Positions 27,329 to 62,347 of a DNA stretch of 64,000 nucleotides are shown here, piece after piece. The notes beneath the pieces were generated by a model. That model was not told where the DNA came from. It made no database searches and saw only the letters and a program-made list of their open reading frames with translations. Source of the DNA: Bacilli bacterium (lineage in GTDB: Bacteria; Bacillota_I; Bacilli_A; RFN20; CAG-826); the NCBI GenBank assembly GCA_045597865.1, contig JAZLKX010000052.1, positions 43,017 to 107,016 of the forward strand, in the 5' to 3' direction. The translations under genes were made by a program, and so were the position numbers. The stretch's first letter is position 1. The number at the start of each line of letters is the position of its first letter.

Positions 27329-28105
27329 ATGAAAAAGTATTTAACTGAAGTAGTTTTATTAACGAAGAGCTATAATCTTCAGGATTTTAAAGATTGGCTA
27401 CATTGGCATTTAGATATTATTGGTTTTGACCATTGCCATGTATTTGATAATGAAAGTTCAGTAGACATTAAATCGGTGTGTGATGCTTATGGTGAAAAAG
27501 TTAGTTATGAACTGATAAAAGGTTGGCCTAATCAATACGAACTGTATAATAGATATGTTAATAAAGAAAGTAAAGCTTGGTGGGTTTTGCCTATTGATGA
27601 TGATGAATATCTTTGGATGAAAAATTTTGATAACGTAAATAAAATGATTTTGTATTATCAAGATAAATGGAAAGATATGAACAAGTTAAGTATTAGATGG
27701 CAGAACATGTTTCCAAAAGATCCAAAAGCTGACCGCGGAAATAAATCACTTATGGAATTTAATACTGAAAATAATACCAAATGGGCAAATTTTTTTACAG
27801 GCGGAAATTTACCAGTAAAAACATTTGTAAAGACTACAAATGAAGTTATATATGATGAAAAGTCTAGTCAAACTCATAATCCTATAGTAAATAATCAAAT
27901 GTCATATCTATGTAATGGCGCTAGATTAAAAGGAAATTGGTTTAGAAGTGGCCCATATAATGATGCTGACGTAAAACTTTTACATTTTCAGTATAAGTCA
28001 GCTAAAGAATGGGAATGGAAATGCAAAAATAGATTAGCTATTTTTGGAAAAAAGAAATTTGTTTATACGGCTGGCCAGGAAAAAATTATTGAGAGGATGA
28101 AATGA
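27329..28105 (+). CDS. Glycosyltransferase-like protein (GT2/GT92-like), paralogue of 34736-35551
   Basis: LTKSYNLQDFKDWLHWH, DNESSVDI, IDDDEYLW. Very AT-rich. Confidence 0.5.
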   Translation: MKKYLTEVVLLTKSYNLQDFKDWLHWHLDIIGFDHCHVFDNESSVDIKSVCDAYGEKVSYELIKGWPNQYELYNRYVNKESKAWWVLPIDDDEYLWMKNFDNVNKMILYYQDKWKDMNKLSIRWQNMFPKDPKADRGNKSLMEFNTENNTKWANFFTGGNLPVKTFVKTTNEVIYDEKSSQTHNPIVNNQMSYLCNGARLKGNWFRSGPYNDADVKLLHFQYKSAKEWEWKCKNRLAIFGKKKFVYTAGQEKIIERMK

Positions 28106-28947
28106 TATATTTTGTAAATCCACCCAGACATCCAAACATTGGCGATATAGCAATTTTTTATGCTAGTTCATTACTTTTTAATAAACATGAACTTAAATAT
28201 GAAATTATGAATATAGAAAACTATAAAAAATTTACTATTAAACCTGAGGATAAAATAGTAATACTTGGCGGAGGCTGGGTTGGAATATACGATTGTTCTT
28301 TAACTGATTTTTATTATGATATTATAAACAAATATGAAAAGACTAATAAAATAATTATGATGCCGAATTCATTTGCGCCAATAAAGAAATCTTTTAATAA
28401 AATAGTTAATGCTAAAATTACAATCTTTGCACGAGATCCAATATCATATGATAATTATAAAAAGTATTTTAAAAATGCAACTGTTAAATTATGTCCAGAT
28501 ATAGTATATTCGTTACCCAGAATAGATTATGCTCACGAAACAACAAATTGTACCGGCGTGTATGCTAGAAAAGATGTAGAAACGGTTAAAGGAATTGAAA
28601 AAATTAAAGGCGAATATGTATCTAGGTTTTTACAAAAATCAATAAATTATGATAAAAATTTAGATGCTTTATTTAATGTTGTGTATAAACAAATTTTTAC
28701 AATGACTAAATATGATGTAATTGTAACTGATACATTACATATGTCTATTTTTGCATATTTACTTAAAAAACCATGTATCATATTTGACAATAATTATGGC
28801 AAAGTTAATAATACATGGAAACAATATAAACATGCCTGTGTATGTCCTTATGATAATAATTTAGGACAAGACATAAACAAATATAATTTTAATTATGAAG
28901 ATATAGATTTTAATTTTGATGAGTTAGTCGCTGAATTAAAGAAATAA
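28102..28947 (+). CDS. Possible polysaccharide pyruvyl-transferase-like / GT-B-like enzyme
   Basis: N-terminal PNIGDIAIF and ILGGGW are reminiscent of the PS_pyruv_trans family. Weak assignment. Confidence 0.35.
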   Translation: MIYFVNPPRHPNIGDIAIFYASSLLFNKHELKYEIMNIENYKKFTIKPEDKIVILGGGWVGIYDCSLTDFYYDIINKYEKTNKIIMMPNSFAPIKKSFNKIVNAKITIFARDPISYDNYKKYFKNATVKLCPDIVYSLPRIDYAHETTNCTGVYARKDVETVKGIEKIKGEYVSRFLQKSINYDKNLDALFNVVYKQIFTMTKYDVIVTDTLHMSIFAYLLKKPCIIFDNNYGKVNNTWKQYKHACVCPYDNNLGQDINKYNFNYEDIDFNFDELVAELKK

Positions 28948-33771: not shown

Positions 33772-34302
33772 ATGCCTGATTACAATGTTGAGATTTTACA
33801 ACATCCAACAGAAGATGATTGGCAAACAGTAAAGCTTCTTGCCTTAAACACGATGGGCAAGAGCTATATGAAGGATAAGGAAATGTCTCAGGAATTGAAG
33901 GCTAAATATCTTCGTTCTGAGCATTCACCTATTCGTGCTTTGCAGTTTATCATCAAGATGGAAATTCCGTATTATGTTTCTACACACCTTGTAAGACATA
34001 AGTACGGCGTTGAACATTTTATTCAGTCACAGCGAAATGATCGTCAGGATAAGTATGACCGTGAACAGGCACCACAGGGCGCTTTGGTATCACATATCAT
34101 GCTTGTCAATGCTCAAGCGCTGATGGCTATGTCAAGAAAGCGTCTGTGTGGTAAAGCTGATATTACTACGCAGAAGGTTTGGAGAACTGTTGTCAAAAAG
34201 GTACTTGAAACTAATCCTGAATTTAAGGAAGTTCTCGTTCCTAACTGTGAATACCTACATTCTTGCCCTGAGTTCCAATCTTGTGGGCGTTGGAAAGAAT
34301 AA
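33772..34302 (+). CDS. thyX: FAD-dependent thymidylate synthase-like protein (short ThyX)
   Basis: EHSPIRALQFIIKMEIPYYVSTHLVRHKYGVEHFIQSQRN fits the ThyX signature RH(R/K)-x7-S-x-R. The downstream NAQAL..SRKRLC helix also fits. Confidence 0.65.
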   Translation: MPDYNVEILQHPTEDDWQTVKLLALNTMGKSYMKDKEMSQELKAKYLRSEHSPIRALQFIIKMEIPYYVSTHLVRHKYGVEHFIQSQRNDRQDKYDREQAPQGALVSHIMLVNAQALMAMSRKRLCGKADITTQKVWRTVVKKVLETNPEFKEVLVPNCEYLHSCPEFQSCGRWKE

Positions 34303-34748
34303 TGAAAGATGTTGCTATAAAATGCGATTTTAAGAAGGCAATGAGCGATGCTCATTGCCTTCTTACTAAAAAGGATATGGCTACTTTTCTTAACAAGCAT
34401 CCGTTGCTTCAAAAGAATGGTGACCAAACAACATATTCGTTTAAAGACATTCCAGAAATCGGCCAAGTTATCTCAATAGCAACGACATATATGCATGTTG
34501 CTGAGGGTTATAAAATACGAGATGAACACGGATATTACACCGATGTATATCGTGTAGAACCTGAAATCTTTGCTATAGGCTGGCAGCGATATACATATAA
34601 GCTTATGACTGCTGAATTGGTGGATAACATTATCAAAGCAGTTCATACAGCAGCACTTGAAGCACAAAAACAGCACAGACGGGCTATGGTTGAATGGAAT
34701 AAGTATCTTATTATGCAAGAAGCTGAACAGGATTTATGCTCCACATAA
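34302..34748 (+). CDS. Hypothetical protein
   Basis: ATG overlaps the thyX stop (TAATG). Confidence 0.55.
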   Translation: MKDVAIKCDFKKAMSDAHCLLTKKDMATFLNKHPLLQKNGDQTTYSFKDIPEIGQVISIATTYMHVAEGYKIRDEHGYYTDVYRVEPEIFAIGWQRYTYKLMTAELVDNIIKAVHTAALEAQKQHRRAMVEWNKYLIMQEAEQDLCST

Positions 34749-35551
34749 TTTGTTTGACAAAAAGTTACCGACTTGATGATTTTGAATGCTGGGTAAAGTT
34801 CCATGTTGGTCCTAACACGAAGATACATATCATTGATAATGATTCTTCGGTAAACATTGAACCCATTTGTCAGAAATACGGCTTAGAAAGAATCACACTT
34901 TTTGGCTTTGCTGACCAATGGGGACTTTTTGGTAACATACTAAATGGAAAAACAGAGATAAAGTTTGAAGAGGACGACATTGTGATGTTCTTAGATGACG
35001 ATGAATTCCTTTGGTATGATGGAAATAAGTATTCGTCCTTAGAATGCGCATTAAAAGCCAGTTTTAAACAGACGGGTTGTTTATTATTGCCTGAAATTTT
35101 GATGTCCACGCATCATTTAACGGTCGGTAGAAGCACTGTTTGTCCCGAGGCGTGCTATTATCGCCGAGGCGATTTGTCAAGCCAAGGAAAAGCAGCAGTT
35201 TTATGGGCGTCTTGGCTCAAATACTCCTTTAATCACGGCGATACTGAAATTGGACATGTGCCGTGGATAAACAAGCACCGCTATTCTGATGTACTCGGAT
35301 CGGATGTAAGTAAGACTACTTACGGACTTTGTGATTATGAGGCTCCTTTGAGACTTTATCATTATCATATTAAGTCGGAAACTGATTGGAATATCAAAAT
35401 ACAACGAGGATCTGCCGCGGTATTTGTGAATAAACCCGGAAAAAACGGAAGTTATGACCCGGACATTACCAAAGATAAGAAATTTGGTGGGTATGACATC
35501 CCGGATTTTACTATGAAGCAAGCTTGGGAAAGAATCAAAGGAAATTCTTAG
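34736..35551 (+). CDS. Glycosyltransferase-like protein, paralogue of 27329-28105
   Basis: LTKSYRLDDFECWVKFH, DNDSSVNI, LDDDEFLW. Confidence 0.5.
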   Translation: MLHIICLTKSYRLDDFECWVKFHVGPNTKIHIIDNDSSVNIEPICQKYGLERITLFGFADQWGLFGNILNGKTEIKFEEDDIVMFLDDDEFLWYDGNKYSSLECALKASFKQTGCLLLPEILMSTHHLTVGRSTVCPEACYYRRGDLSSQGKAAVLWASWLKYSFNHGDTEIGHVPWINKHRYSDVLGSDVSKTTYGLCDYEAPLRLYHYHIKSETDWNIKIQRGSAAVFVNKPGKNGSYDPDITKDKKFGGYDIPDFTMKQAWERIKGNS

Positions 35552-35616: not shown

Positions 35617-36090
35617 ATGCCTAACTATTTCACCCCTGCCCTCTATCTGATCCGCGGTGTTGCGGGTTCCGGCAAGACAACTTATGCAAAGAATCATTTG
35701 ATTCCTATCCTGCAGAAAGAAACCGGTATTGTACCGATTCCGCACTTTGAAGCAGATGACTTCTGGATGAGACGACAGCCGGATGGTTCGCTTAAGTATG
35801 TGTTTGAACCTGCTAAACTGGGTTTGGCTCATAAGACCTGCCTTGACAATATGAAGGCTGCATTCAACAGCGCAGATTTTCATACGGTAGTTGTTGTTTC
35901 AAACACTTTCACGACTGAAAAGGAAATGAAGCCTTACATTGAGTTTGCTGAACAGAACGGTATTGAGGTAAACGTCATTCGTATGAATACTTGGTACGGT
36001 TCAATTCACGATGTTCCTGCCGATGTCATTGACAATATGCGTAAGCGCCTGGAAGCAAATCCATATCCTTATGAAACTGTGATTGGATAA
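35617..36090 (+). CDS. P-loop polynucleotide-kinase-like protein
   Basis: LIRGVAGSGKTTYAKN Walker A. Small AAA_33/Pnk-like size (157 aa). First gene of the RNA-repair cassette. Confidence 0.6.
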   Translation: MPNYFTPALYLIRGVAGSGKTTYAKNHLIPILQKETGIVPIPHFEADDFWMRRQPDGSLKYVFEPAKLGLAHKTCLDNMKAAFNSADFHTVVVVSNTFTTEKEMKPYIEFAEQNGIEVNVIRMNTWYGSIHDVPADVIDNMRKRLEANPYPYETVIG

Positions 36091-36150
36091 ATTAAAACAG
36101 GCGAAGCAAAACAACATTTTAGCGCAGCGCATTGCTGCATAAGGATTTTT

Positions 36151-36927
36151 ATGTCAAACCATATTGTGATACCTGACGACAAAGAACTGTATTTTGTTTC
36201 TGACTTCCATTTTTGCCATCATAAGCTCTGCCGAGGCTATGAAGACTCGTTCAACATGCCTCGTAACTTTGAAACGACAGATGAGATGAATGAAGCCATC
36301 GTCAAGTCAATGCAATTAGGTCCTAATGCAGTTGTTGTGTTCTTGGGCGACTTTTGTATGAATGTGCCTGGGTCAGAAATGCGTGATACTTTTTATAAGT
36401 TCATTGACCAGTTCAAAGTTGACAAGATGTTGATGATTTTTGGAAATCATGACCATGTGTTGAAGAAGAAACTATGCGATGACAACATTGAGTTCTATTC
36501 ATACACGGTTATTGAACATCGTGGCAAGACATATTTCTGTCAGCACCGTGACTTTAATGAAAATCCATACTTCCTGAAACACGAAGGTGCGGAATTTCTT
36601 AACGCTATTCCTGAAAACTGTCTATATCTTGTACACGGACATACACATTCACCGATCTTCTTGTCTAAAGTTGATAAATGGACGCAGAACTGCGTTTGCT
36701 TTGATGTTGCCAATCGTCCTATCGCCGCAGACGAACTTGTTCCGTACGATATGGACATTAATGCAGACATTGATTTGGCTCCGGAGCTTACTCAGTACTA
36801 TGAGAATATCGCTGAAGAGTGTGGAACTTCATTGGAACAGCTGATTGATGACAGCATTCATCATGCGATGTCACACAATGAAGTGCTTCAGGAAATCAAC
36901 TATGCACTAAACAACTTAACCAAATAA
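36151..36927 (+). CDS. Calcineurin-type metallophosphoesterase 1
   Basis: Motifs SDFHF, GDF, GNHD, GHTH. Confidence 0.75.
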   Translation: MSNHIVIPDDKELYFVSDFHFCHHKLCRGYEDSFNMPRNFETTDEMNEAIVKSMQLGPNAVVVFLGDFCMNVPGSEMRDTFYKFIDQFKVDKMLMIFGNHDHVLKKKLCDDNIEFYSYTVIEHRGKTYFCQHRDFNENPYFLKHEGAEFLNAIPENCLYLVHGHTHSPIFLSKVDKWTQNCVCFDVANRPIAADELVPYDMDINADIDLAPELTQYYENIAEECGTSLEQLIDDSIHHAMSHNEVLQEINYALNNLTK

Positions 36928-36934
36928 ATAATAC

Positions 36935-37072
36935 ATGAGAAAGCTATACGAAACCCTTTGCCGTCTTATTGACGAAGATCCTATAGTTATCATGCTATAT
37001 GGTCTTGAGGGTCTCGTTGTTTTGACCGGCTTAGGTCTTGTGGCTCTCATCGCCAAAGTAATGTTACTTTAG
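36935..37072 (+). CDS. Micro membrane protein (45 aa)
   Basis: One TM segment; ends in TAG; below the track cutoff. Confidence 0.35.
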   Translation: MRKLYETLCRLIDEDPIVIMLYGLEGLVVLTGLGLVALIAKVMLL

Positions 37073-37080
37073 GAAGTAAT

Positions 37081-37239
37081 ATGTCAATACTGATGGGCAT
37101 CTTATTTATCTTAATAGGTCAGATTATGTGGATGGTAAATGCACCCGTTGCATGCGTCATTCTTGAGACTTTGCTCGGTCTTATGTGCTTGACCTATTCT
37201 ACCATTGAACATTTTTCAAACAAGAAGGATCCAAAATGA
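37081..37239 (+). CDS. Micro membrane protein (52 aa)
   Basis: Two hydrophobic segments; the stop overlaps the next ATG (ATGA). Confidence 0.4.
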   Translation: MSILMGILFILIGQIMWMVNAPVACVILETLLGLMCLTYSTIEHFSNKKDPK

Positions 37240-38099
37240 AAACTGGATATGTACTTTCGGATGTCCATGTAGATTTTCTTTACAGGGGCAATAACCCGGA
37301 ACATACTTATGAAGAATTTGCTGCACTTGCTGACAAATGGCTTGTTGGGTTGAACTTGCCGCCTACATACGCACTTATCGTTGCTGGCGACATCTCAAAC
37401 GACTTTCAGACATTCACTTACTTCTGTCAGTGGATTTCTGGTAAGTATTCAAAGACTTACATTGTGCCTGGAAACCATGATATGGTTGTGAGAGGCTCAA
37501 CGCCGTCTACCTCTAATCAGCAGTTTCAGACTTCCTTTGACAGAATTGAAGCTATGAAGAAGGAATGCGCCAAGTATGATAATGTTGTCCTGCTTGATGG
37601 TGACATTATTGATGGAATCGGCGGAACCATGGGTATGTGCGATTTTGAATATCGCCCAAGCATTACGCTGAACTATCCGTTGTTCTGGAAGATGCATTGG
37701 TTTGATGGCAAGCACTGGAGACTTGATGGCACTGAACCTTTGGAATACTGGAAGCAGCAGCAGGCTAAGATGCACGCCATCATTGATAAGCAGCCAAAGG
37801 TTGTGATGACGCATTTTGCGCCTGTTCAGGTTGGCGTTCCGTTTGAATATCGGAATGATAACTGCTCTTGCTTCTTCTATTTCAACGGTGAGGAATTCTT
37901 GGAAAGAATGCCGAATGATTCCTATTGGATCTGCGGTCATACCCATGATTTCCATGCAGTAGATTATACCTGCAAGAATGGCAATGTTGTGCACATTCTT
38001 TGTAACCCACATGGCTATCCTGGTGAACAGGACTATAATTGGTATGATCCTACCGCAGGTTACAAGAAAGAAAATTTCATCATTCCATTGCCAGAATAG
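37236..38099 (+). CDS. Calcineurin-type metallophosphoesterase 2
   Basis: Motifs SDVHVD, AGDISND, PGNHD, THF, GHTHD. Confidence 0.75.
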   Translation: MKTGYVLSDVHVDFLYRGNNPEHTYEEFAALADKWLVGLNLPPTYALIVAGDISNDFQTFTYFCQWISGKYSKTYIVPGNHDMVVRGSTPSTSNQQFQTSFDRIEAMKKECAKYDNVVLLDGDIIDGIGGTMGMCDFEYRPSITLNYPLFWKMHWFDGKHWRLDGTEPLEYWKQQQAKMHAIIDKQPKVVMTHFAPVQVGVPFEYRNDNCSCFFYFNGEEFLERMPNDSYWICGHTHDFHAVDYTCKNGNVVHILCNPHGYPGEQDYNWYDPTAGYKKENFIIPLPE

Positions 38100-38143
38100 T
38101 TAAAAGTTGTTATTTTAAAAACACAATTCAACAAGGAGATAAC

Positions 38144-38464
38144 ATGAGCCGTTCTCGTAAGAAACCTCTTCCTGGTACAAAAGAAACTTTCCGCGTCGGT
38201 ATTGCATATTGTGATGACTGGACTATGGGTAAGTGGAAGCGCAGATACAACCGTGATATGCGCCGCAAGAATCACCAGCTTGAAAATGTTATCTCCAAAC
38301 TTGATGAAGATTCCATTGAGGACGATGAAAGCGTTTGGATGAATGATCCGAATGATTTGCCGTCCGGTGTCGGTGATTTGTGGCTGTCACCTTGTGATGG
38401 ATATTTGCTGTTTGACGCATCTGTCCGACGGAACGGCAAAACTTATCAGCTTGCTATGAAATAA
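38144..38464 (+). CDS. Hypothetical basic protein
   Basis: ORF track; SD aaggag. Confidence 0.55.
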   Translation: MSRSRKKPLPGTKETFRVGIAYCDDWTMGKWKRRYNRDMRRKNHQLENVISKLDEDSIEDDESVWMNDPNDLPSGVGDLWLSPCDGYLLFDASVRRNGKTYQLAMK

Positions 38465-38466
38465 AT

Positions 38467-38697
38467 ATGGGACCAACTGAACGAACATTAATGATGGCGC
38501 AGTATGCAGGCAATGGCCAGGTATTACTTGACTCTGCAGGCATGCTTTTTGTTTTAGCAGGCTTGTCATTTCTGTGCTGTTTAATTGTTGTGGCAATTTG
38601 CTTATGTGCCGTGAATGAATTTGTGGATTGGTATAACAAAAAGAAACTGAAGAAAGAATTTGAAGAGGAAGAAGATGACATACACACCAAAACTTGA
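38467..38697 (+). CDS. Small membrane protein
   Basis: Central TM segment and an acidic tail. Confidence 0.5.
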   Translation: MGPTERTLMMAQYAGNGQVLLDSAGMLFVLAGLSFLCCLIVVAICLCAVNEFVDWYNKKKLKKEFEEEEDDIHTKT

Positions 38698-39838
38698 AGA
38701 CTATATGAAGGCACTTGAAGAAAACCGTGTCTTTGCTTGTGAAGATGAGCATTACATTGGTTTCAAGTACAATGCGCCTACTGTCATTTTCCATTATTGG
38801 GACGATGTAACCTTGAACGCCCGTGGAATTGTCTTTGACAAAGCTACTGGTGAAATTGTGGCTCGTCCTTTCTATAAGTTCTTTAACTACGAGGAACTTA
38901 TCAACGGTGCCGGTGCAAGAACTGACATTCTTGATAAGATGGAAGCTTGTGGTTTTAAATTTGACCGCACTGAATCCTTCCGCGTAATGGACAAACTTGA
39001 CGGATCTTTAGGAATTATGTTTTACGATAAGTATGCAGGTTCTTGGAGAGTAAAGACAGGCGGAGCTTTTAGCTCAAATCAAGCAGCGTGGGCAAATGAA
39101 TGGGCAAAGAAGAACATTACTTCTGGCCTTGACACTTCGCTTACTTACTGCTATGAAATCATCTATGACGCAGATATTCACCCAATCTCGTATGACTTTG
39201 AGGGCATGGTTCTATTAGGAGCCATTGATACTGCAACAGGTGAGGAAGTATCTTTAGAGCAGCTTCGTCAAATTGCCGTTGAGCAAAAAGTAAGACTTGC
39301 TGACATCATTGAGTTCAAATCATTTGATGAAGCAATCTCTTATGCAAAGAACCTTTCTAAAACAAAGGAAGGTGTTGTGGTGACATTTAAGAACGGTTTC
39401 AAGGTAAAGATCAAGGGTCATGAATTCTTGGCTTTGCAGAAACAGTTCCATGCTATCACAAAAGAAATGATCTGGGAGAACTATGATTGTGAAAACTGGC
39501 TACACCCATACACAGCAGAATTCTTAGCATCTATTCCTGAAGAAATGAAGGAAATGCATGATTATGCTGAAGAGCTTGACAAGAAGATTTCAGAAGCAAC
39601 CTATGTTGCACGAAGCACCGCTTATCGTGTGTACAAAATGATTAAAGATGCAAACTTACAGCGCCGTGATGCGTTTGAGTTGATTACATCTTGCTTTGCG
39701 AAATTCAATCCAAAGCTGGTTGGTCCAGCTATGAAGGTATATTCATTGTTGGAACAGGGTAAGACTGACCGTGACATCAGCTCACCTGAATGTGTATCTT
39801 CTATTGTCAAGTTAGTTCACCGATTATTCAAACCTTAA
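38675..39838 (+). CDS. RNA ligase, T4 Rnl1-like
   Basis: RPFYKFFNYEE, motif I MDKLDGSLG, motif IV EGVVVTF, motif V FKVKIKG. Confidence 0.75.
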   Translation: MTYTPKLEDYMKALEENRVFACEDEHYIGFKYNAPTVIFHYWDDVTLNARGIVFDKATGEIVARPFYKFFNYEELINGAGARTDILDKMEACGFKFDRTESFRVMDKLDGSLGIMFYDKYAGSWRVKTGGAFSSNQAAWANEWAKKNITSGLDTSLTYCYEIIYDADIHPISYDFEGMVLLGAIDTATGEEVSLEQLRQIAVEQKVRLADIIEFKSFDEAISYAKNLSKTKEGVVVTFKNGFKVKIKGHEFLALQKQFHAITKEMIWENYDCENWLHPYTAEFLASIPEEMKEMHDYAEELDKKISEATYVARSTAYRVYKMIKDANLQRRDAFELITSCFAKFNPKLVGPAMKVYSLLEQGKTDRDISSPECVSSIVKLVHRLFKP

Positions 39839-41389: not shown

Positions 41390-41450
41390 TTTACAGTAGG
41401 GTTAAAAGTTGTTATATTTTACTCGTAATCAAAAACAACAAACAAAAATA
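41390..41450 (+). promoter_or_regulatory. Class-I promoter P7 plus leader
   Basis: TTTACAG-N16-TATATTTTACTCGTAATCAAAAACAACAAAC. The -35 element lies in the 3' arm of hairpin cctgctgtaaa/tttacagtagg. Confidence 0.7.
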
Positions 41451-41501
41451 AATTACTACTGCAGCGATATTTGCGCTGATGTAACACAACTTGAGGGCAC
41501 T

Positions 41502-42218
41502 ATGGCAAAAGAACTCGACCACGGCTTTGTTTATCTCATCACCAACGGCGATTTTGAAAGGCTCGGAAGTTACAAGATTGGAAAGACTGTTTCAGTTGAA
41601 CAGCGTCTTGCTAACTTTAATTCCTCAACGGAATCTTTGCCGGATTGGCGAGCCATCGCTTACATTGAAACCGACCAGCAGAGTTTGCTTGAAAGCACGC
41701 TGCACTTGATTTTTAAAGAACATCGTCGTTCTTCTCGTCGTGAACTGTTTGACTTTGCTGAAGACCGCGATGATGGATTCTGTCTTGATGAAGTATTGGA
41801 CATCTTTGAACGTCAGGCGGAACTTATTGGCGGAACCTTTACTTTGGCTGAAACGCCAACTGAAAAGGAAACAACCGTTCGTACATGCAACCAGCCGAAG
41901 AATAAGTTTAGCTTTAAGGCACTTGTTGGCCTTCGCGATGGCGATGAACTTATTTGGGATGTTGGCGATGGTGTTCATTCCCAGAAATTTTACGTATCAT
42001 CTGTACACAAGATGGGTAATACTTATCTTGTCACTGATCCGAATGATGTAAACTCAACGGATCCTGCGGTTTACCGATCCCTAAGTTCCATGGGATTATG
42101 GCTCAGTAATGCTTTCCCGGGCTTAGACCGAGAACAGTATTGGGACCGTTCAAACTGGTATTTCGGTGGAAAATCCTTCAAGGATTATTTTGACGAATAC
42201 CTCCAAAACTTAACTTAA
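41502..42218 (+). CDS. T5orf172 / GIY-YIG-superfamily domain protein
   Basis: GFVYLITNGDFERLGSYKIGKT....R...FN pattern. It has its own promoter. Confidence 0.6.
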   Translation: MAKELDHGFVYLITNGDFERLGSYKIGKTVSVEQRLANFNSSTESLPDWRAIAYIETDQQSLLESTLHLIFKEHRRSSRRELFDFAEDRDDGFCLDEVLDIFERQAELIGGTFTLAETPTEKETTVRTCNQPKNKFSFKALVGLRDGDELIWDVGDGVHSQKFYVSSVHKMGNTYLVTDPNDVNSTDPAVYRSLSSMGLWLSNAFPGLDREQYWDRSNWYFGGKSFKDYFDEYLQNLT

Positions 42219-46623: not shown

Positions 46624-47127
46624 ATGACTGAACTTACAGGTTTCGTTTTAATCGCATCAATCATTGGTAACATTGCATTCGGATTTAAATCGCTTTCACA
46701 GGTGATTAAATGTATTCGTAGCCGTTCAGTTTATGGAATTAGCCCGCTTATGCTAATTCTTGACTTCATAGGTAACATCGGCTGTGGATATTCAATTTAC
46801 ATGACGACAGGTTTTACTTTGTGGCCACAGTTCGTAAATTACTTCTGCGCTACATTGTTCCTGATTATCTTATTTGTGCTTTTGGCTACATTTGGAAAGA
46901 AAAAAGAGGTGCTTTGTAAAGAAAGCGAAATGATTGAAATGAAACGAAAGGCTGATATGCATGATAGGCTGCTGAAGATGGATCCTTCATATGCAAAGAA
47001 ATCTGCAGCCGTAATCTTATCAGATGCAAAGATACAATGTGCTACACATAATACCAAGTATACTGTAATTGATGGGCATGTTCGCCCTATTCCAGAAGAT
47101 GATCATATACAACACAATGAGGATTAG
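46624..47127 (+). CDS. PQ-loop / SemiSWEET-like 3-TM membrane protein with a soluble C-terminal extension
   Basis: FKSLSQVIKCIRSRSVYGISPLMLILDFIGNIGCGYSIY resembles a PQ-loop repeat. Confidence 0.45.
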   Translation: MTELTGFVLIASIIGNIAFGFKSLSQVIKCIRSRSVYGISPLMLILDFIGNIGCGYSIYMTTGFTLWPQFVNYFCATLFLIILFVLLATFGKKKEVLCKESEMIEMKRKADMHDRLLKMDPSYAKKSAAVILSDAKIQCATHNTKYTVIDGHVRPIPEDDHIQHNED

Positions 47128-47132
47128 ATAAG

Positions 47133-47315
47133 TTGACAGATCCTGAGCAGATTAACTTAGATTTGCCTATTGACTATTCAGAACCGTATTGTAATTTTGA
47201 TAAAGAAAAATTCTCGGCTGAAAAGACAACCGAGAAAGATCCTAAATTTGAACTTGCTAAAGCGTTAGCTCAAGCAGCGATTACTAAGACAGTTACGATT
47301 ACGAAATCTTTTTAA
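47133..47315 (+). CDS. Small hypothetical protein (TTG start)
   Basis: Track ORF; non-ATG start; its 3' end overlaps the convergent gene. Confidence 0.3.
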   Translation: MTDPEQINLDLPIDYSEPYCNFDKEKFSAEKTTEKDPKFELAKALAQAAITKTVTITKSF

Positions 47316-47772
47316 TTCTGAAACTGAAGAGACAGTTCTTCTTATTGTCTAAGTTATCATCACCCCAGTGTTCAGGACTTGCCGCAAACCATTCAAGTGC
47401 CTTATCAGCAACGCCTGCTTTAAAACGGCTATAACCTGCTTGGCGAACGGCACCGCGGAAGAAGTCATCACATTCTTCACGAGTGAAGGTTCCCTTGATT
47501 CCTCTAGATGAATACAAGCAGTCATGCAACACAGCACCCATGTCGTATGTCAAGTTCTTATCGTCCCACTTAGGAAGGAACCATTGGAATGCTTTAGGCA
47601 CACTAGCCCCATCTGTGCGGAAATCACGCTTGCATAACAAGTCAAGCTGATAGGTGTCTTTGTTCTTAGTATAAGTTGCGGTAATCGTAGCGTCTTTAGT
47701 AAATGTCCAAATCTTTTTCTTTTCAGTTGTTTGAATATCAGTGAACTTTAATTCTTTCAATGATACTGCCAT
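47299..47772 (-). CDS. DUF1353-family protein
   Basis: RTDGASVPKAFQWFLP ... AVLHDCLY signature. SD aaggagg. One of the few minus-strand genes. Confidence 0.65.
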   Translation of the reverse strand: MAVSLKELKFTDIQTTEKKKIWTFTKDATITATYTKNKDTYQLDLLCKRDFRTDGASVPKAFQWFLPKWDDKNLTYDMGAVLHDCLYSSRGIKGTFTREECDDFFRGAVRQAGYSRFKAGVADKALEWFAASPEHWGDDNLDNKKNCLFSFRIKKIS

Positions 47773-47852
47773 AATTTACCTCCTTTATTATTTACAAATT
47801 TTCTTAAAAAATTACCCACATAAATAATCCAGCTAACAAACATGGAGCTTTT

Positions 47853-49100
47853 ATGAACATTCTAATTACCAAGATGATGACCGCACGTTTCACAACCAAT
47901 ACCGATCGTGAGCGTCTTTGCGGTGGGTTCGATGCAATTTCTTACATGATTCAACGTATCGCTGAATCATACCCACAACATACTTTTTACTATATTGGAG
48001 CATCTGATTTGGCAGACAGTCAATTATCTACCCCAGAAAATTTAAAGGACCTCTACACGCCTATAAAGGCGTTTGCGAAAGAGCACGGATATGATCCAAT
48101 CGCACAGGATTTGGCAAACACAAGCAAGCCTTTCTATCAAGCATGTTTAGACTACTGTAAGGAAAATGGCCTAAAATTTGACCTCGCACTTTATCAGTAT
48201 GAACAGACTTTGCCTATCGCCCATTACGCCGACGGATATATTTCAGAACGAACAAAAGGCGTTCTAAAGACATTAGTATCACAAAGACATTCAGCACACG
48301 CATTTGTTCTTGCAAGCGATATGAAAGTTCCTTTGTATTTGATTGTAGATGATCCCCGCCAGATTAACCATATTCCAGCCGATATTACCCCGCCAGTTAA
48401 GATCTTTGCACAATGCAAGGGTACTGACCATACAAGGTATTACGTTGATAAGATTCATAAGGAAGAACACGCTGTACCGATGGAATATGCTGAAATTGAA
48501 AAATTCTACCTATTAAAGAAAGAACGAGTAAACTTTTCAAATCCTGACGAAATTCATCCAACGCCGTTTGAAACCTATAAGAAAGATCTCGGTCTTGTCA
48601 TGACCTTGAACGGCAACTTTGACAGACTCGATTATGTAAGAAAGTGGCTTTTCCCGTATGACGCTGACCTAAAGATTTATGGCCGCTGGGATTCTGGTGA
48701 ATTAGCTAAGAAGGTTGAAAGCCTCGGCCTAACCGACAGATTCATTGTTAAGGGTATGTCAGAGATGGAAGATGTGATGTGGCGCTCAAGATACACACTT
48801 GTTGCTCCACCATCTGCTAAGACCGCAAATTTCGTTACACAGAAGGTTTACTCTATGTTGTATTATGGCATCATGCCTTTCTGGGCAAAGGGTACATACG
48901 ACATTGATAACTTCTATACTGACATTCCTTCGTTCTTTAAGGTTGAAACACCTGATGAATTGTGGAAAAAGATACGATTCTTGGACCGTCACCCTATCTT
49001 CTATCGAGTGATGTTGCGGAAGTGCTATGATGCATTGAAACCTGAATACTTTGAGAACGACTTTGTGCACCGTATCTTTGACTGCATCTTTGAAAAATAA
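47853..49100 (+). CDS. Putative DNA glycosyltransferase, T4 alpha-glucosyltransferase-like (GT-B)
   Basis: 415 aa (T4 AGT is about 400 aa). C-terminal PFWAKGTYD...FFKVETPDELWKKIRFLDRHPIFYRVMLRKCYDAL parallels T4 AGT ...PVFWKSTGE...STFERIKELSSDRALYDREREKAYEFL as I recall it. Confidence 0.45.
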   Translation: MNILITKMMTARFTTNTDRERLCGGFDAISYMIQRIAESYPQHTFYYIGASDLADSQLSTPENLKDLYTPIKAFAKEHGYDPIAQDLANTSKPFYQACLDYCKENGLKFDLALYQYEQTLPIAHYADGYISERTKGVLKTLVSQRHSAHAFVLASDMKVPLYLIVDDPRQINHIPADITPPVKIFAQCKGTDHTRYYVDKIHKEEHAVPMEYAEIEKFYLLKKERVNFSNPDEIHPTPFETYKKDLGLVMTLNGNFDRLDYVRKWLFPYDADLKIYGRWDSGELAKKVESLGLTDRFIVKGMSEMEDVMWRSRYTLVAPPSAKTANFVTQKVYSMLYYGIMPFWAKGTYDIDNFYTDIPSFFKVETPDELWKKIRFLDRHPIFYRVMLRKCYDALKPEYFENDFVHRIFDCIFEK

Positions 49101-49146
49101 TTTCTTACCCTCATAAATATCACAAAACATTTATTATATTTTGAAT

Positions 49147-49647
49147 ATGAAAAAATTAACCTTTGTTTTAGATGTAGATGGCGTGCTTACTGACGGTACA
49201 TTTCTGTACGATGCAAACGGTAAAGCATATAAAAAGTTTGGCCCTGAAGACGCTGATGCTTTAAAGATGTTGGCTCCGTACTGCAATATCGTTTTTGCAT
49301 CCGCTGACACCCGTGGTTTTGAAATCACAAAAAAGCGTGTAAACGATATGGGTTTTGAGGTTCACAACATTAAGGCTCGTGACCGTAAGAATTGGATTAA
49401 AGATAACTTTGGGCTTGAGAATACGATTTACATGGGCGACGGCCTGGTTGATATTCCGTGCCTAGAATCGGTTAAGTATTCTTATGTGCCGGCTAACGGA
49501 TCGGTTGAAGCAAAACGAGCTTGTAATAAAATACTGCAGGAAATGGGCGGTCATGGCGCTGTCGCTGAAGCCGTATATGATATTGCAGAAACATTTTTCA
49601 ACAAGACATATATTGATTTACTAAAGGAGAATGGATATGACGTATAA
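49147..49647 (+). CDS. HAD-IIIA sugar-phosphate phosphatase (KdsC/YrbI family)
   Basis: VLDVDGVLTDG ... YMGDGLVDIP ... GGHGAVAEA. Confidence 0.75.
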   Translation: MKKLTFVLDVDGVLTDGTFLYDANGKAYKKFGPEDADALKMLAPYCNIVFASADTRGFEITKKRVNDMGFEVHNIKARDRKNWIKDNFGLENTIYMGDGLVDIPCLESVKYSYVPANGSVEAKRACNKILQEMGGHGAVAEAVYDIAETFFNKTYIDLLKENGYDV

Positions 49648-50215
49648 CGAATTGAAGGACAAGGTACTTGCTGAGCTTAATCAGTCGCTTAGCTCCATTG
49701 ATGAACGCATCGTTGACCAACTGGCTGAAGAACTGGCTTACAAGCGCCAGGCCGTTATCGTTGGACACGCTGCTGGCCGTATGGGTTATGGTCTTCGTGC
49801 TTTCATTATGAGGCTCATGCATTTGGGCTTTCACGCTTACTGGTACAATGATACTACCATTCCGCACATGTCACCGAACGATATGTTCATTTTCGCATCT
49901 GGCTCTGGTAAGACACGAACTGTTGTAAATCTGGCTGAAATCGCAAAAGAAAAGAGCGGCTGCCGCATTGTTTCTGTAACTGGCGATGTTGAGTCACCGC
50001 TTGCTAAGATTTCTGATTTGGTCATTAAGTTCACTGGCTGTAATAATGGATTGAACTCTGAAAATGATCCTAGTAAGATTAACAGCATTCAGCCGATGAC
50101 GACTTTGAATGAACAGGCGATGTTTATTTTCTTTGATTTGCTTGCTTTGAAGATTATGGAAAAGCTTGGCGAAGACAACAACACTCTTAGCTATCGCCAT
50201 AACAATATAGAATGA
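49631..50215 (+). CDS. Single-SIS-domain sugar-phosphate isomerase (6-phospho-3-hexuloisomerase-like)
   Basis: GRMGYGLRAFIMRLMHLGFHAY, IFASGSGKT, SIQPMTTLNEQAMFIFFD, C-terminal RHNNIE; close to HxlB-type PHI as I recall it. Confidence 0.7.
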   Translation: MDMTYNELKDKVLAELNQSLSSIDERIVDQLAEELAYKRQAVIVGHAAGRMGYGLRAFIMRLMHLGFHAYWYNDTTIPHMSPNDMFIFASGSGKTRTVVNLAEIAKEKSGCRIVSVTGDVESPLAKISDLVIKFTGCNNGLNSENDPSKINSIQPMTTLNEQAMFIFFDLLALKIMEKLGEDNNTLSYRHNNIE

Positions 50216-50231
50216 TTATAAAGGAAAACAG

Positions 50232-50915
50232 ATGAATATCAGTACATCACTTATCTGTATGAACATGTCTCAGGTTGATAAAGACATCAACCGAGTTCTT
50301 ACAGCAGCTAACGGCGACACCAGATTTAACTGGTTTCATGGAGATTTTATGGATGGTCACTTTGTTCCGCGCCTTGGCATTTCGCCTGAACTTATTCGTG
50401 ACATCAAGCAGGAATTTCCGAATGTACAGATTGACAGTCACTTGATGATTGATGATCCGTACACTTATGTTGATGTTATCGCTCCGTATTCTGATTGGGT
50501 CGTTTATCATTATGAAGCGGTCACTGACCCAGTTCGTACACTTCAAAAGATCCGTAAGACATGGCCGAATGTTAAGGTTGGACTTGCGATGAATTTGGCT
50601 ACACCGTTTGATCCGAGCATCATTCAGCTCTTTGACGGCGTTATGTTCATGGGAATCTCTCCAGGCGTTCTTGGAACCAATTCATATCCGCAAATCGTTG
50701 AACAGAAAATTGGCGCTGTTCCAACACATAAACATTACTTTGTTGATGGTTCTGTGAATTTCACAACACTTAAGACATACGGCGACATCAACCCCAATGG
50801 AACACTTGTTTGTGGTTCATCTACGATGTTTAAGATTGATGATCTTACTAAGGGTATGAACCGTGATGATCTTGTCAAGTTCAACGTGAACCGCATTAAG
50901 GAGAAAATTGTATGA
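50232..50915 (+). CDS. Ribulose-phosphate 3-epimerase-family enzyme (pentulose/hexulose-phosphate 3-epimerase)
   Basis: FHGDFMDGHFVPRLG, IDSHLMI, VDGSV, CGSS. Confidence 0.7.
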   Translation: MNISTSLICMNMSQVDKDINRVLTAANGDTRFNWFHGDFMDGHFVPRLGISPELIRDIKQEFPNVQIDSHLMIDDPYTYVDVIAPYSDWVVYHYEAVTDPVRTLQKIRKTWPNVKVGLAMNLATPFDPSIIQLFDGVMFMGISPGVLGTNSYPQIVEQKIGAVPTHKHYFVDGSVNFTTLKTYGDINPNGTLVCGSSTMFKIDDLTKGMNRDDLVKFNVNRIKEKIV

Positions 50916-52570
50916 AGAAAACCGTTGTAATTCCAGCTGCCGGCTTGGGTAGCCGTCTTAATGAATTCACGAAGAATTACAATAAGGCAATGTGTACATT
51001 GGGTCCTAAGCCTGTCATTTCATACATCATTGAGAAATTTGATGTAACCGATGAAATCATTGTGCTTCTTGGCTATAAAGGCGATTTGCTTAAACAAGTC
51101 CTGAAAATCTGTTATCCTGACAGAAATATCAAGTTCGTAACTGTTGATGTTTATGAAGGTCCAGGTTCTGGCTTGGGTTACTCTTTGTCTTGCGCTAAGA
51201 ACCTTTTGCAGAAACCGTTCTTGTTCTGGTCTAATGATAGCATTATTCAAGATGACATCAATGGATTTGACTTTGAACATAACTTTATGGTTTTGTCCAA
51301 ATTTGATAAAGAAAACGCCGATTCATATCGTCATGCAAGAATCGGTAAGCACGAAGTTCAGGCAATTCTTGCTAAAGGTGATTATGATGTAAATGGCATT
51401 AAGACTAAGCCTTACATTGGCATTTCTTACATCAAGGATTACAAACAGTTCTGGAAGGCACAGGAAGACAACTTTGAAATTTTCGTAAATGCAGGCGAAA
51501 GTGCTGGCTTGAATAATCTGAATGACATTCGTTATTACATCACAGACACTTGGCTTGACACAGGCAATAAGGAAAAGCTTATTGCTGCTAAGGAAGAATA
51601 CTCTAAGAAGATGGAAGCAACGATTCTTGAAAAGCCAGACGAAGCAATTTGGTTTTTAGATGACAGAGTCGTGAAATTCCACATTGATCCGAAGTTCATT
51701 GACGGCCGTGTAAAACGTTTCACAACATTTGTAAATCAGGCTATGGAAGATAAAGGTATCACAATTCCTGAACTTTTGAGCCACGATAAGAATGTTTATG
51801 CTTATCGTCTTGCTGATGGCAAGGTAATGTCAAAGGAAGTAAATCCGACTAGTTTCTTGAATTTTATCGTTTCATTCTTTGAAAGCGTTGATGAACGAGA
51901 AGTTCCGTATGAAAAGAAACTTGAAATCTATAATGACTTTTATAAGAACAAAACTTTGCAGCGCATTGAGAAATACTGTAAGGAACACGAAGATCTTGAC
52001 AGCCGATGCGTCATCAATGGATTGGATTGTTACTCGGCAAAAACGATCATTGAAGATATGATTGATTGGGACGCCATTGCGAATAAAGCTATCATCACAG
52101 ATAACTATCACGGTGACTTCCATCTTGAAAATATCTTGGTGAATGAAGTTGACGGCAAAGAACAGTTCGTGATGCTTGACTGGAGACAGAACTTTGGTAA
52201 GACATTTGAAGGCGATATTTACTATGATATTGCTAAAATGTGGCATTCATTGATTGTGAACCATGGGATGGTCAAGGATAATCTTTTCCATTGTGAAGTT
52301 AAGGCAAACGGCGAGATTGAGCTTGACATCCATCGTACATTCATTGATACTGAATGTGAAGATATGTTAAAAGGTTGGCTGAATAATTCCGCGTATGACG
52401 AAATTCATGCACAATTTTTGACTGCATTGATCTTCTTGAACATCGCTGCATGTCATACATATCCGTACTGCAAATTCTTATTCTACTTGGGTAAGTACTT
52501 GATGAATAAATTTATCGTTGCTTATCCGCAATACTTGAAACCTGATGTTTTGAAACTTCAAGAAAATTAA
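50912..52570 (+). CDS. Bifunctional sugar-1-phosphate nucleotidyltransferase / APH-choline-kinase-fold sugar kinase
   Basis: N-terminal VVIPAAGLGSRL. C-terminal HGDFHLENILV ... LDWRQ (Brenner and DxG-equivalent motifs). ATGA overlap with the epimerase gene. Confidence 0.7.
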   Translation: MKKTVVIPAAGLGSRLNEFTKNYNKAMCTLGPKPVISYIIEKFDVTDEIIVLLGYKGDLLKQVLKICYPDRNIKFVTVDVYEGPGSGLGYSLSCAKNLLQKPFLFWSNDSIIQDDINGFDFEHNFMVLSKFDKENADSYRHARIGKHEVQAILAKGDYDVNGIKTKPYIGISYIKDYKQFWKAQEDNFEIFVNAGESAGLNNLNDIRYYITDTWLDTGNKEKLIAAKEEYSKKMEATILEKPDEAIWFLDDRVVKFHIDPKFIDGRVKRFTTFVNQAMEDKGITIPELLSHDKNVYAYRLADGKVMSKEVNPTSFLNFIVSFFESVDEREVPYEKKLEIYNDFYKNKTLQRIEKYCKEHEDLDSRCVINGLDCYSAKTIIEDMIDWDAIANKAIITDNYHGDFHLENILVNEVDGKEQFVMLDWRQNFGKTFEGDIYYDIAKMWHSLIVNHGMVKDNLFHCEVKANGEIELDIHRTFIDTECEDMLKGWLNNSAYDEIHAQFLTALIFLNIAACHTYPYCKFLFYLGKYLMNKFIVAYPQYLKPDVLKLQEN

Positions 52571-61786: not shown

Positions 61787-62347
61787 ATGGTAATTATCGT
61801 TGAAGGTCCAGATAGAACGGGAAAAACAACACAAATCGCAAAGATGAAAGAGCATTATGAAGCTCAAGGTAAATCTGTTCAGGTTATTCATTATGAATCC
61901 ATCAAGAAAGATGAGGGTTTTAAGTACAACGCAAAAATCTTGCAGCAGATGAGCCGTGTTCGTTATGATGACATGTTAAATTTGGCAAATACTTTTGCAG
62001 AAGATGACAAGACCGTACTTATCTTTGACCGTGCTCACTTGGGTGAACTTGTATATGCACCGTTGTTTAGAAAATATGGCGGTGAATATGTTTTCAACTT
62101 GGAAGACAAGTATCCAACTTTCCTTGAAAAAACAAAACTGTTTGTTTTCGTTGATGAAGCAAAAAATCTTGTTAAGCGTGATGATGGCAAGAGCTTGGGC
62201 AAGGTGACTAAAAAGACAAAACAGCGTGAAAAGGATTTGTTTGAGGTCGCATTTGAATGCTCAAACATTAAAGACAAGCACTTGATTAACATCAACAAGA
62301 CAAAAGAAGAAAAAGTGTGGGAATTGGTTAAGGAAAAACTTGTATGA
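61787..62347 (+). CDS. Thymidylate-kinase-fold dNMP kinase
   Basis: IIVEGPDRTGKTTQ P-loop, typical of the Tmk family. ATGA overlap with the hydroxymethylase gene. Confidence 0.7.
   Translation: MVIIVEGPDRTGKTTQIAKMKEHYEAQGKSVQVIHYESIKKDEGFKYNAKILQQMSRVRYDDMLNLANTFAEDDKTVLIFDRAHLGELVYAPLFRKYGGEYVFNLEDKYPTFLEKTKLFVFVDEAKNLVKRDDGKSLGKVTKKTKQREKDLFEVAFECSNIKDKHLININKTKEEKVWELVKEKLV

Follow-up and report, generated by a model that had tools for sequence, protein, structure and literature searches.

The window analysed here is a stretch of 64,000 nucleotides (64 kb) from contig JAZLKX010000052.1. The system in question is a module of five consecutive genes, together with a nucleotide kinase gene and a thymidylate synthase (TS) homolog further downstream. 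It is quite likely that this module makes an activated rare sugar of its own and attaches it to 5-hydroxymethylcytosine (hmC) in the DNA of a jumbo phage. This reading draws on active-site signatures, homology, predicted fold and gene context. A preliminary description of the window had proposed that hmC is decorated with a non-glucose sugar which the phage itself converts to a nucleoside diphosphate (NDP)-sugar. The proposal agrees with every computational test made here and gains support from the homology of one module enzyme to AfhE of RB69-type phages, from the TMPK-like kinase, the TS signature, the modelled fold of the putative glycosyltransferase (GT) and the co-occurrence of these genes in other loci.

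The module consists of the following features:

47853-49100, + strand: putative GT, 415 aa
49147-49647, + strand: predicted HAD phosphatase; start codon ATG at 49147, with TTG at 49141 as the alternative of the longest open reading frame (ORF)
49631-50215, + strand: SIS-domain isomerase candidate, 194 aa
50232-50915, + strand: sugar-phosphate 3-epimerase candidate, 227 aa
50912-52570, + strand: nucleotidyltransferase (NTase)-kinase fusion, 552 aa
52578-52604, + strand: intrinsic terminator hairpin closing the operon (dG -15 kcal/mol; z = -4.3 against shuffles)
61787-62347, + strand: TMPK-like nucleotide kinase (PF02223, E 9e-11), its stop codon overlapping the start of the TS homolog
62344-63093, + strand: deoxycytidine monophosphate (dCMP) hydroxymethylase of the T4 gp42 type (PDB 1b49, E 4e-38)

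The first five genes were confirmed on the forward strand where the preliminary description had placed them. Profile and PDB searches upheld its family assignments as well, namely a KdsC-family HAD, a SIS protein closest to 6-phospho-3-hexuloisomerase (PHI), an Rpe-family epimerase and the fusion of an NTase with an APH-type kinase. The HAD and SIS genes overlap by 17 nt, a gap of 16 nt with an AGGA-type ribosome-binding site lies between the SIS and epimerase genes, and the epimerase stop codon and the start codon of the fusion share an ATGA. The last four genes overlap or abut one another and end at a single terminator, as had been described.

The proposed route would start from the base. 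The gp42-type enzyme would convert dCMP to 5-hydroxymethyl-dCMP (hm-dCMP), which the TMPK-like kinase would phosphorylate for incorporation, so that the DNA would contain hmC. In parallel, the 3-epimerase and the SIS protein would convert a central ketose phosphate to a rare aldose ω-phosphate. The C-terminal kinase domain of the 552-aa fusion would phosphorylate C1 to give a bisphosphate, the KdsC-like HAD would strip the terminal phosphate to leave the sugar-1-phosphate, and the N-terminal NTase domain would turn this into the NDP-sugar. The enzyme encoded at 47853, which resembles T4 β-glucosyltransferase (β-GT) and has the GT-B fold, would then transfer the sugar to the hydroxymethyl group of hmC in DNA. 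There it would shield the genome from restriction and CRISPR nucleases.

Supply of the modified base

The dCMP hydroxymethylase that had been recognised at 62344 was borne out by its match to 1b49 and by its active-site residues. The protein belongs to the TS family (PF00303, E 8e-15) and shares 36% identity with gp42 and 16-17% with the enzymes that supply 5-hydroxycytosine (5hoC). In an alignment numbered by E. coli ThyA, it has W80, Y94, D143, C146, T147, D169, G173 and D177 and is identical to T4 gp42 at all 8 diagnostic positions. The 5hoC synthases of RB69, DLP1, Thanatos-2, LC53 and RL38J1 have A80, F94, E143, N169 and V173 instead. Asp at ThyA position 177 marks cytosine rather than uracil as the substrate, as established for gp42. 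The TS signature points to hmC as the predicted base. It was found in all 12 scorable TS homologs near members of the NTase-kinase family in metagenomic loci, and the 5hoC type in none.

RB69, DLP3 and their relatives carry arabinose on 5hoC, not on hmC, and their TS homolog is a 5-hydroxy-dCMP synthase with Asn at ThyA position 169 as its proposed mark (Lee et al. 2026, PMC13326640). This D169N exchange is absent from the window enzyme, which has Asp. An assignment as an RB69-like 5-hydroxy-dCMP synthase was rejected because gp42 residues occupy the diagnostic sites. The preliminary description had held that RB69-type phages attach arabinose to hmC; its analogy rests on an outdated structure, since the acceptor in RB69 is 5hoC (PMC13326640).

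The TMPK-like kinase was compared by hhalign with the TS-adjacent 'nucleotide kinase' of RB69, DLP1, Thanatos and LC53 and was found to be related to it with a probability of 97.8% (E 1e-12). It is predicted to be an hm-dCMP kinase. Elsewhere in the window, a short ThyX-like ORF at 33772-34302 gave a partial match to PF02511 (E 3e-6); this implies a dTMP route separate from the gp42-like enzyme, so that the supply of dTMP does not depend on the TS homolog.

The nucleotidyltransferase-kinase fusion

In RB69-type phages, UDP-arabinofuranose is produced by an arabinose-5-phosphate isomerase, the bifunctional NTase-kinase AfhE and the HAD phosphatase AfhF. AfhE converts arabinose-5-phosphate to the 1,5-bisphosphate and arabinose-1-phosphate to UDP-arabinose (PMC13326640). 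The order of isomerase, anomeric kinase, phosphatase and NTase that had been deduced for the window holds and is the same as for AfhE and AfhF. It is not new, as it has been demonstrated experimentally for these two enzymes (summarised in PMC13326640).

The window fusion matched PF00483/PF12804 at its N-terminus and, weakly, PF01636 (APH) at residues 400-446. The GxG(T/S)R motif of NTases is present as AAGLGSRL at residues 9-16. Two kinase motifs, HGDFHLEN and DWRQNFGK, are invariant in the NTase-kinase family, which comprises 389 homologous clusters, and align to HGDPNFSN and DPRGYFGK of AfhE-type enzymes. BLASTP against the RB69, DLP1 and Thanatos proteins gave marginal though collinear similarity, and tblastn against deposited phages gave no RB69-type match. 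Because the BLAST similarity was marginal, a profile of 27 family members was compared by hhalign with the AfhE-type enzymes of DLP1, Thanatos and LC53. This resulted in a probability of 97.5% and E 6e-12 over 487 columns across both domains. Judged by this profile comparison, the fusion is a remote end-to-end homolog of AfhE. The gene context argues for a sugar other than arabinose in its reaction.

The glycosyltransferase

The 415-aa protein had no family match in Pfam, PHROG or NCBIfam, and a PHROG scan of the module proteins returned only families of 'unknown function'. Its AlphaFold model (pLDDT 92.7, pTM 0.90) has the GT-B fold with two Rossmann domains. On Foldseek against the PDB, T4 β-GT came out on top (1qkj with E 2.4e-9; 1j39, 1nzd and 1c3j), with E-values between 2e-9 and 7e-8 and TM-scores of 0.5-0.6. 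It was followed by GT4 enzymes such as BshA, and T4 α-glucosyltransferase (α-GT; 1y6f) appeared at rank 13. The likeness to T4 α-GT that had been suggested before thus stands for the fold class, GT-B, but not for the nearest relative, which is the β-enzyme. In a viral library, the best matches were a Myoviridae protein and a 'DNA beta-glucosyltransferase' with TM-scores of 0.71-0.75.

At the sequence level, tblastn against deposited phages found XG4 only (24%), and hhalign detected no relation to the Aat transferases. The family comprises 62 homologous clusters, all of them metagenomic. On the basis of modelled fold and gene context, the protein is predicted to be a DNA (hmC) glycosyltransferase. 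If the pathway is confirmed, it would found a new family of DNA glycosyltransferases.

Phosphatase, isomerase and epimerase and the nature of the sugar

The HAD protein matched TIGR01670 (KdsC subfamily) with E 1.7e-17 at 63.8 bits, short of the cut-off of 106.95. In the PDB, KdsC was on top (1j8d, E 9e-17), and the DxDG-type motif of the protein reads DVDG. No relation to the AfhF-type HAD was found by hhalign (probability 1.7%). The protein is predicted to be a KdsC-like phosphatase of the C0 type that would strip the terminal phosphate of a sugar bisphosphate.

For the SIS protein, TIGR03127 (PHI) was the closest family by far with E 1.8e-41 and 142 bits, under the cut-off of 160. The best structures were B. 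subtilis YckF/HxlB (1m3s, E 5e-29) and, at E 1e-7, the arabinose-5-phosphate isomerase of B. fragilis (3etn). PHI interconverts 3-hexulose-6-phosphate and fructose-6-phosphate, and E. coli AlsE interconverts allulose-6-phosphate and fructose-6-phosphate.

The epimerase matched PF00834 (E 2.9e-26, 92.5 bits). In NCBIfam, the AlsE equivalog NF007266 was on top with 97.8 bits, far below its cut-off of 271. TIGR01163 (Rpe) gave 92.4 bits, its cut-off being 212.6; the residues of the catalytic His/Asp set are conserved. AlsE was also the top match of the protein in the PDB. When a profile of four sequences was searched against the PDB, E. coli AlsE (3ct7) again ranked first with 104.8 bits, compared to 93.5 bits for the best Rpe. 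The metal-binding and catalytic residues H30, D32, H63 and D173 (AlsE numbering) are invariant. In the β8 loop, the conserved Gly and Phe/Tyr/Met are spaced by 5 in AlsE (GTSGLF) and, in the alignment, in 29 of 29 cassette epimerases (e.g. GSSTMF); for E. coli Rpe and the solved Rpe structures compared, the value is 4. AlsE reportedly takes its longer substrate through a phosphate-binding loop after β8 that is one residue longer than in Rpe, as Chan et al. are said to have described in 2008. The N-terminal motif SLxCM(D/N) is of the AlsE type as well; Rpe has SILSAD. A one-residue insertion in the β7 loop was also considered, vanished in a larger alignment and was dropped.

There is an anabolic precedent in AgmD, an AlsE homolog which converts fructose-6-phosphate to allulose-6-phosphate for the rare-sugar nucleoside of angustmycin biosynthesis (PMC8599513). 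A hexose route is favoured because the SIS protein is PHI-like, the epimerase is AlsE-like in top match, loop and motif, AgmD sets a precedent and a coupled Rpe would be redundant for arabinose. The route would lead from fructose-6-phosphate via allulose-6-phosphate to allose- or altrose-6-phosphate, the 1,6-bisphosphate, the 1-phosphate and finally the NDP-hexose. We regard this sequence of steps as evenly poised between right and wrong, and it is the weakest step of the argument. A pentose (arabinose, xylose or lyxose) is somewhat unlikely as the sugar, and anything else is unlikely.

A pentose would be obtained from the same module, with the same hmC acceptor, if an ordinary Rpe fed ribulose-5-phosphate or xylulose-5-phosphate to the SIS protein. 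The latter would then form arabinose-5-phosphate (or xylose- or lyxose-5-phosphate), and the DNA would carry arabinosyl- or another pentofuranosyl-hmC. Thanatos-type phages do carry a pentose (PMC12838424), and the sole characterised relatives of the fusion act on arabinose-5-phosphate and yield UDP-arabinofuranose (PMC13326640). Moreover, Rpe enzymes score nearly as high as AlsE against the epimerase, and arabinose-5-phosphate isomerases lie within the SIS family and include the 3etn match. On the other hand, the SIS protein is ~70 bits nearer to PHI than to arabinose-5-phosphate isomerase and related to the RB69-type isomerase at the superfamily level only (hhalign probability 28%), and the AlsE-length β8 loop is present in every cassette epimerase. 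Nearly all hosts own Rpe, so arabinose synthesis would have no need of a further Rpe that is strictly conserved and coupled in translation, and RB69-type clusters have none. Taken as a whole, this pentose version of the module is improbable.

Conservation across phage loci

Thirty phage-type NTase-kinase loci were surveyed by means of gene contexts, an IMG/VR scan and tblastn mapping. Many homolog clusters of the GT and NTase-kinase families lie on contigs of 80-650 kb. The GT is found within 10 kb of the NTase-kinase in 21 of the 30 loci. The epimerase is present in 19, of which 17 also have the SIS gene; one of the two exceptions is truncated by the end of its contig, and the other seems genuine. 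In L033-L038, TS, HAD, SIS, epimerase, NTase-kinase and GT genes are contiguous in this order. A second class of loci (L002, L027-29, L041 and L042) contains HAD, NTase-kinase, GT and TMPK-like kinase genes without SIS or epimerase, and some loci (L030, XG4) combine a gp42-type TS with an AfhF-type HAD. The grouping is not due to chance, as the genes recur jointly in dozens of independent contigs with proteins down to 25-40% identity. The parts are evidently mixed combinatorially, with NTase-kinase and phosphatase as a constant 'activation' core and upstream enzymes that set the sugar.

Several loci show further peculiarities. L015 (5055-11233) contains epimerase, NTase-kinase and GT genes and no detectable SIS or KdsC-like HAD; a GT92-like protein, a TylF-type methyltransferase and a 320-aa protein without a family match are encoded in their place. 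Its sugar may be a different one, possibly methylated. In more distant lineages, namely L013 (3698-4990 and 11194-12468), L002 (11264-12481) and GCA_016648615.1, the GT is bordered by C5 DNA cytosine methyltransferase genes despite the gp42-type hydroxymethylase. L013 has an additional paralogous GT of 459 aa and a separate small NTP-transferase. The cassette also lies on the 656-kb contig of L020 (5049-14298), where genes next to it encode a Mom-like protein, a SAM-synthetase fusion of 719 aa, a PolIII alpha subunit and a DUF4422 glycosyltransferase-like protein. A single genome of megaphage size may thus hold several systems for DNA modification.

A cellular counterpart of the cassette

A scan of 185,579 species genomes revealed the cassette of SIS, epimerase, NTase-kinase and HAD genes, with the order kept, in metagenome-assembled genomes (MAGs) of Chitinophagia, Pedobacter, Alphaproteobacteria and several Patescibacteria. 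On an 880-kb Chitinophagia contig, it is located between Wza-/Wzz-like genes and a Wzx-type flippase gene, and in Pedobacter between genes for Wzm/Wzt, sugar O-methyltransferases and GT2/GT4 enzymes. Bacterial MAG cassettes lie in capsule or O-antigen loci in L053 (6747-10101) and L054 (5977-10090) and also in L050, L051, L055, L058 and L059. The KdsC-like HAD co-occurs with the NTase-kinase in phage as well as in cellular loci. None of the 11 cellular loci has a window-type GT, TS or TMPK-like kinase beside the cassette.

The presence in surface-polysaccharide loci indicates a general, uncharacterised NDP-sugar pathway, to which phages have added the DNA-type GT and the hmC machinery. On this sequence evidence, the phage module is a derivative of a bacterial polysaccharide pathway. 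We tentatively propose, though with reservations, that an NDP-hexose cassette working via allulose-6-phosphate is widespread in bacterial polysaccharide synthesis. A large jumbo- and megaphage clade would have captured it for a base not seen so far, for example allosyl- or altrosyl-hydroxymethylcytosine.

The same cassette in capsule and O-antigen loci could also mean that the phage supplies its NDP-sugar to host envelope glycans or virion glycoproteins and that the 415-aa protein is no DNA glycosyltransferase. Other genes of the window code for GT-A enzymes, for a polysaccharide pyruvyl transferase and, just 5' of the GT, for a PQ-loop membrane protein. However, the phage cassette is coupled to a soluble GT-B protein whose best solved match is the T4 DNA β-GT, and to a gp42-type TS and a nucleotide kinase, in contiguous order in L033-L038. 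The module lies within a block of replication genes, as in T4 and RB69. Since GT, TS and kinase are coupled to the cassette in phages only, DNA is the more plausible acceptor there, and a destination in envelope or virion glycans is very improbable. That the module is a highly diverged ordinary arabinosyl-5-hydroxycytosine (Afh) system of the RB69 type can practically be dismissed: it shares the NTase-kinase architecture, the TMPK-like kinase and a similar DNA polymerase/UvsX neighbourhood with that system, but the TS signature already contradicts it (D169N is absent and seven other active-site positions are gp42-like), isomerase, phosphatase and GT are non-orthologous and an epimerase is added.

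Some points weigh against hmC glycosylation by a phage-made rare sugar. Family searches, tblastn and hhalign linked the GT to no characterised DNA glycosyltransferase at the sequence level. The fusion is only ~19% identical to AfhE-type enzymes, too little for its substrate and nucleotide specificity to be read from theirs. None of the specific enzyme assignments reaches its curated equivalog cut-off, and we know of no PHI-family enzyme that acts as an aldose-ketose isomerase on allulose-6-phosphate. The β8-loop rule for AlsE versus Rpe is attributed to Chan et al. 2008, and those enzymes are promiscuous. A dCTPase was not found among the 30 window ORFs scanned, so that the replacement of cytosine may be incomplete. 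Envelope glycans, too, can be supplied by the product of the cassette, as its cellular form shows.

Transcription signals and genomic neighbourhood

Two promoter-like motifs precede the module genes, their function being inferred:

47812-47826, + strand: promoter-like motif TTACCCaCATAAATA, ending 26 nt 5' of the GT start codon
49105-49119, + strand: second copy TTACCCtCATAAATA, ending 27 nt 5' of the HAD start codon

The exact 15-nt sequence TTACCCnCATAAATA occurs at two sites only in the 64 kb, 47812 and 49105, both in front of module genes. The overall count of the CATAAATA motif in the window is not above chance, and the positions alone are suggestive. In the relative L012, CCCgCATAAATA is present in the gap between GT and HAD genes. 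The 15-nt motif resembles a T4-late-type TATAAATA promoter, which suggests that the GT gene and the sugar operon are transcribed separately but co-ordinately.

A megablast search of the operon against GenBank phages gave no match; the phage has no close relative there. Its DNA polymerase is ~28% identical to T4-like polymerases. With a source contig of ~266 kb, the phage is regarded as an uncultured jumbo phage distant from T4. The module region is flanked by the DNA polymerase gene at 53355 and the UvsX gene at 60561, and clamp genes are also among the neighbours, as in RB69 and T4. The clusters of RB69, DLP1, Thanatos-2 and LC53 lie between DNA polymerase and UvsX genes as the window module does.

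Directly 5' of the GT are genes for a PQ-loop (SemiSWEET-like) membrane protein (46624-47127, + strand) and a DUF1353 protein (47299-47772, - strand). The order PQ-loop, DUF1353, GT is also found in L012, a relative with 71% identity, and the position of a sugar-transporter-like protein beside a sugar pathway may be no coincidence. A block of low GC content (~0.30) at 27329-28947 encodes a GT-A glycosyltransferase and the polysaccharide pyruvyl transferase, and a second GT-A is encoded at 34736-35551. These enzymes could decorate the DNA sugar further or glycosylate virion or host structures.

At 35617-39838, genes for an AAA_33 kinase, two metallophosphoesterases and a T4 Rnl1-type RNA ligase follow in series; the same run is located 5' of the GT in L012. 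It looks like an RNA-repair module directed against anticodon nucleases. In L012, a Phage_endo_I-type endonuclease gene (12506-13135) is inserted between the SIS and epimerase genes, and the window has a T5orf172/MUG113 nuclease-like gene at 41409-42218. Both are probably mobile elements of the homing type. An ORF of 1718 aa at 4184-9340 lies in the structural region of the window.

Significance

Known glycosylations of cytosine in DNA comprise glucose on hmC in T-even phages, arabinose and hexoses on 5hoC in RB69, DLP3 and RL38J1, and various glycans on hmC made by TET enzymes. Glycosylated cytosines decide on phage survival against restriction enzymes, type IV systems and CRISPR nucleases and also serve as tools, for instance in hmC mapping. 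To the known chemistries, the module, which is present in many uncultured jumbo phages, would add a combination of hmC made at the nucleotide level with a rare sugar synthesised by the phage. A literature search found no paper describing this combination of hmC, an AfhE-like core and PHI-/AlsE-like enzymes, and searches for the variant with Rpe and a PHI-like enzyme and for the bacterial cassette found nothing. The module also draws attention to a so far unstudied NDP-sugar pathway of four enzymes that is encoded in capsule and O-antigen loci of bacteria. If confirmed, the pathway would provide a new modified base and a compact set of enzymes that turn a central sugar phosphate into an NDP-rare-sugar with no need for a phosphomutase.

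Comparison with known systems

The closest known counterpart is the Afh system of RB69, DLP3, HY126, LC53 and Thanatos. Both systems lead from the sugar-phosphate pool to an NDP-sugar via a bifunctional NTase-kinase and a HAD enzyme and combine this with a GT-B transferase and a TS-family enzyme for a modified cytosine; the NTase-kinase and the TMPK-like kinase are homologous. The D169N mark was looked for and is absent from the window TS, which is of the gp42 type, so the window module is no member of the RB69-type system. Further differences are the SIS protein, PHI-like instead of KdsD-/3etn-like, the HAD, KdsC-like instead of AfhF-like, and a GT unrelated in sequence. With the hmC base and the additional AlsE-like 3-epimerase, these are what appears to be new, and the sugar is probably a hexose and not arabinose.

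The T4 system for glucosyl-hmC likewise has a gp42-type hydroxymethylase, a GT-B transferase of the kind that the window GT resembles (β-GT) and the same genomic neighbourhood. T4, however, takes UDP-glucose from the host and has no sugar-synthesis genes. The window GT lacks detectable sequence similarity to α- and β-GT, and the nucleotide kinase is TMPK-like and not gp1-like.

The logic of isomerase, kinase, phosphatase and NTase is also that of the ADP-/GDP-heptose pathway (GmhA, HldE or HddA/HddC, GmhB), in which kinase and NTase are fused in HldE. In the window, however, the kinase is APH-like and not of the ribokinase or GHMP type, the NTase has another fold, the SIS protein is PHI-like and not GmhA-like, and a 3-epimerase is added. 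The relation to this pathway is one of analogy, not homology. D-allose catabolism of E. coli (AlsE, RpiB/AlsI), together with AgmD, resembles the window epimerase in top match, β8 loop length and SLxCM motif. The partner isomerase in the window is a SIS protein instead of RpiB, and the direction would be anabolic.

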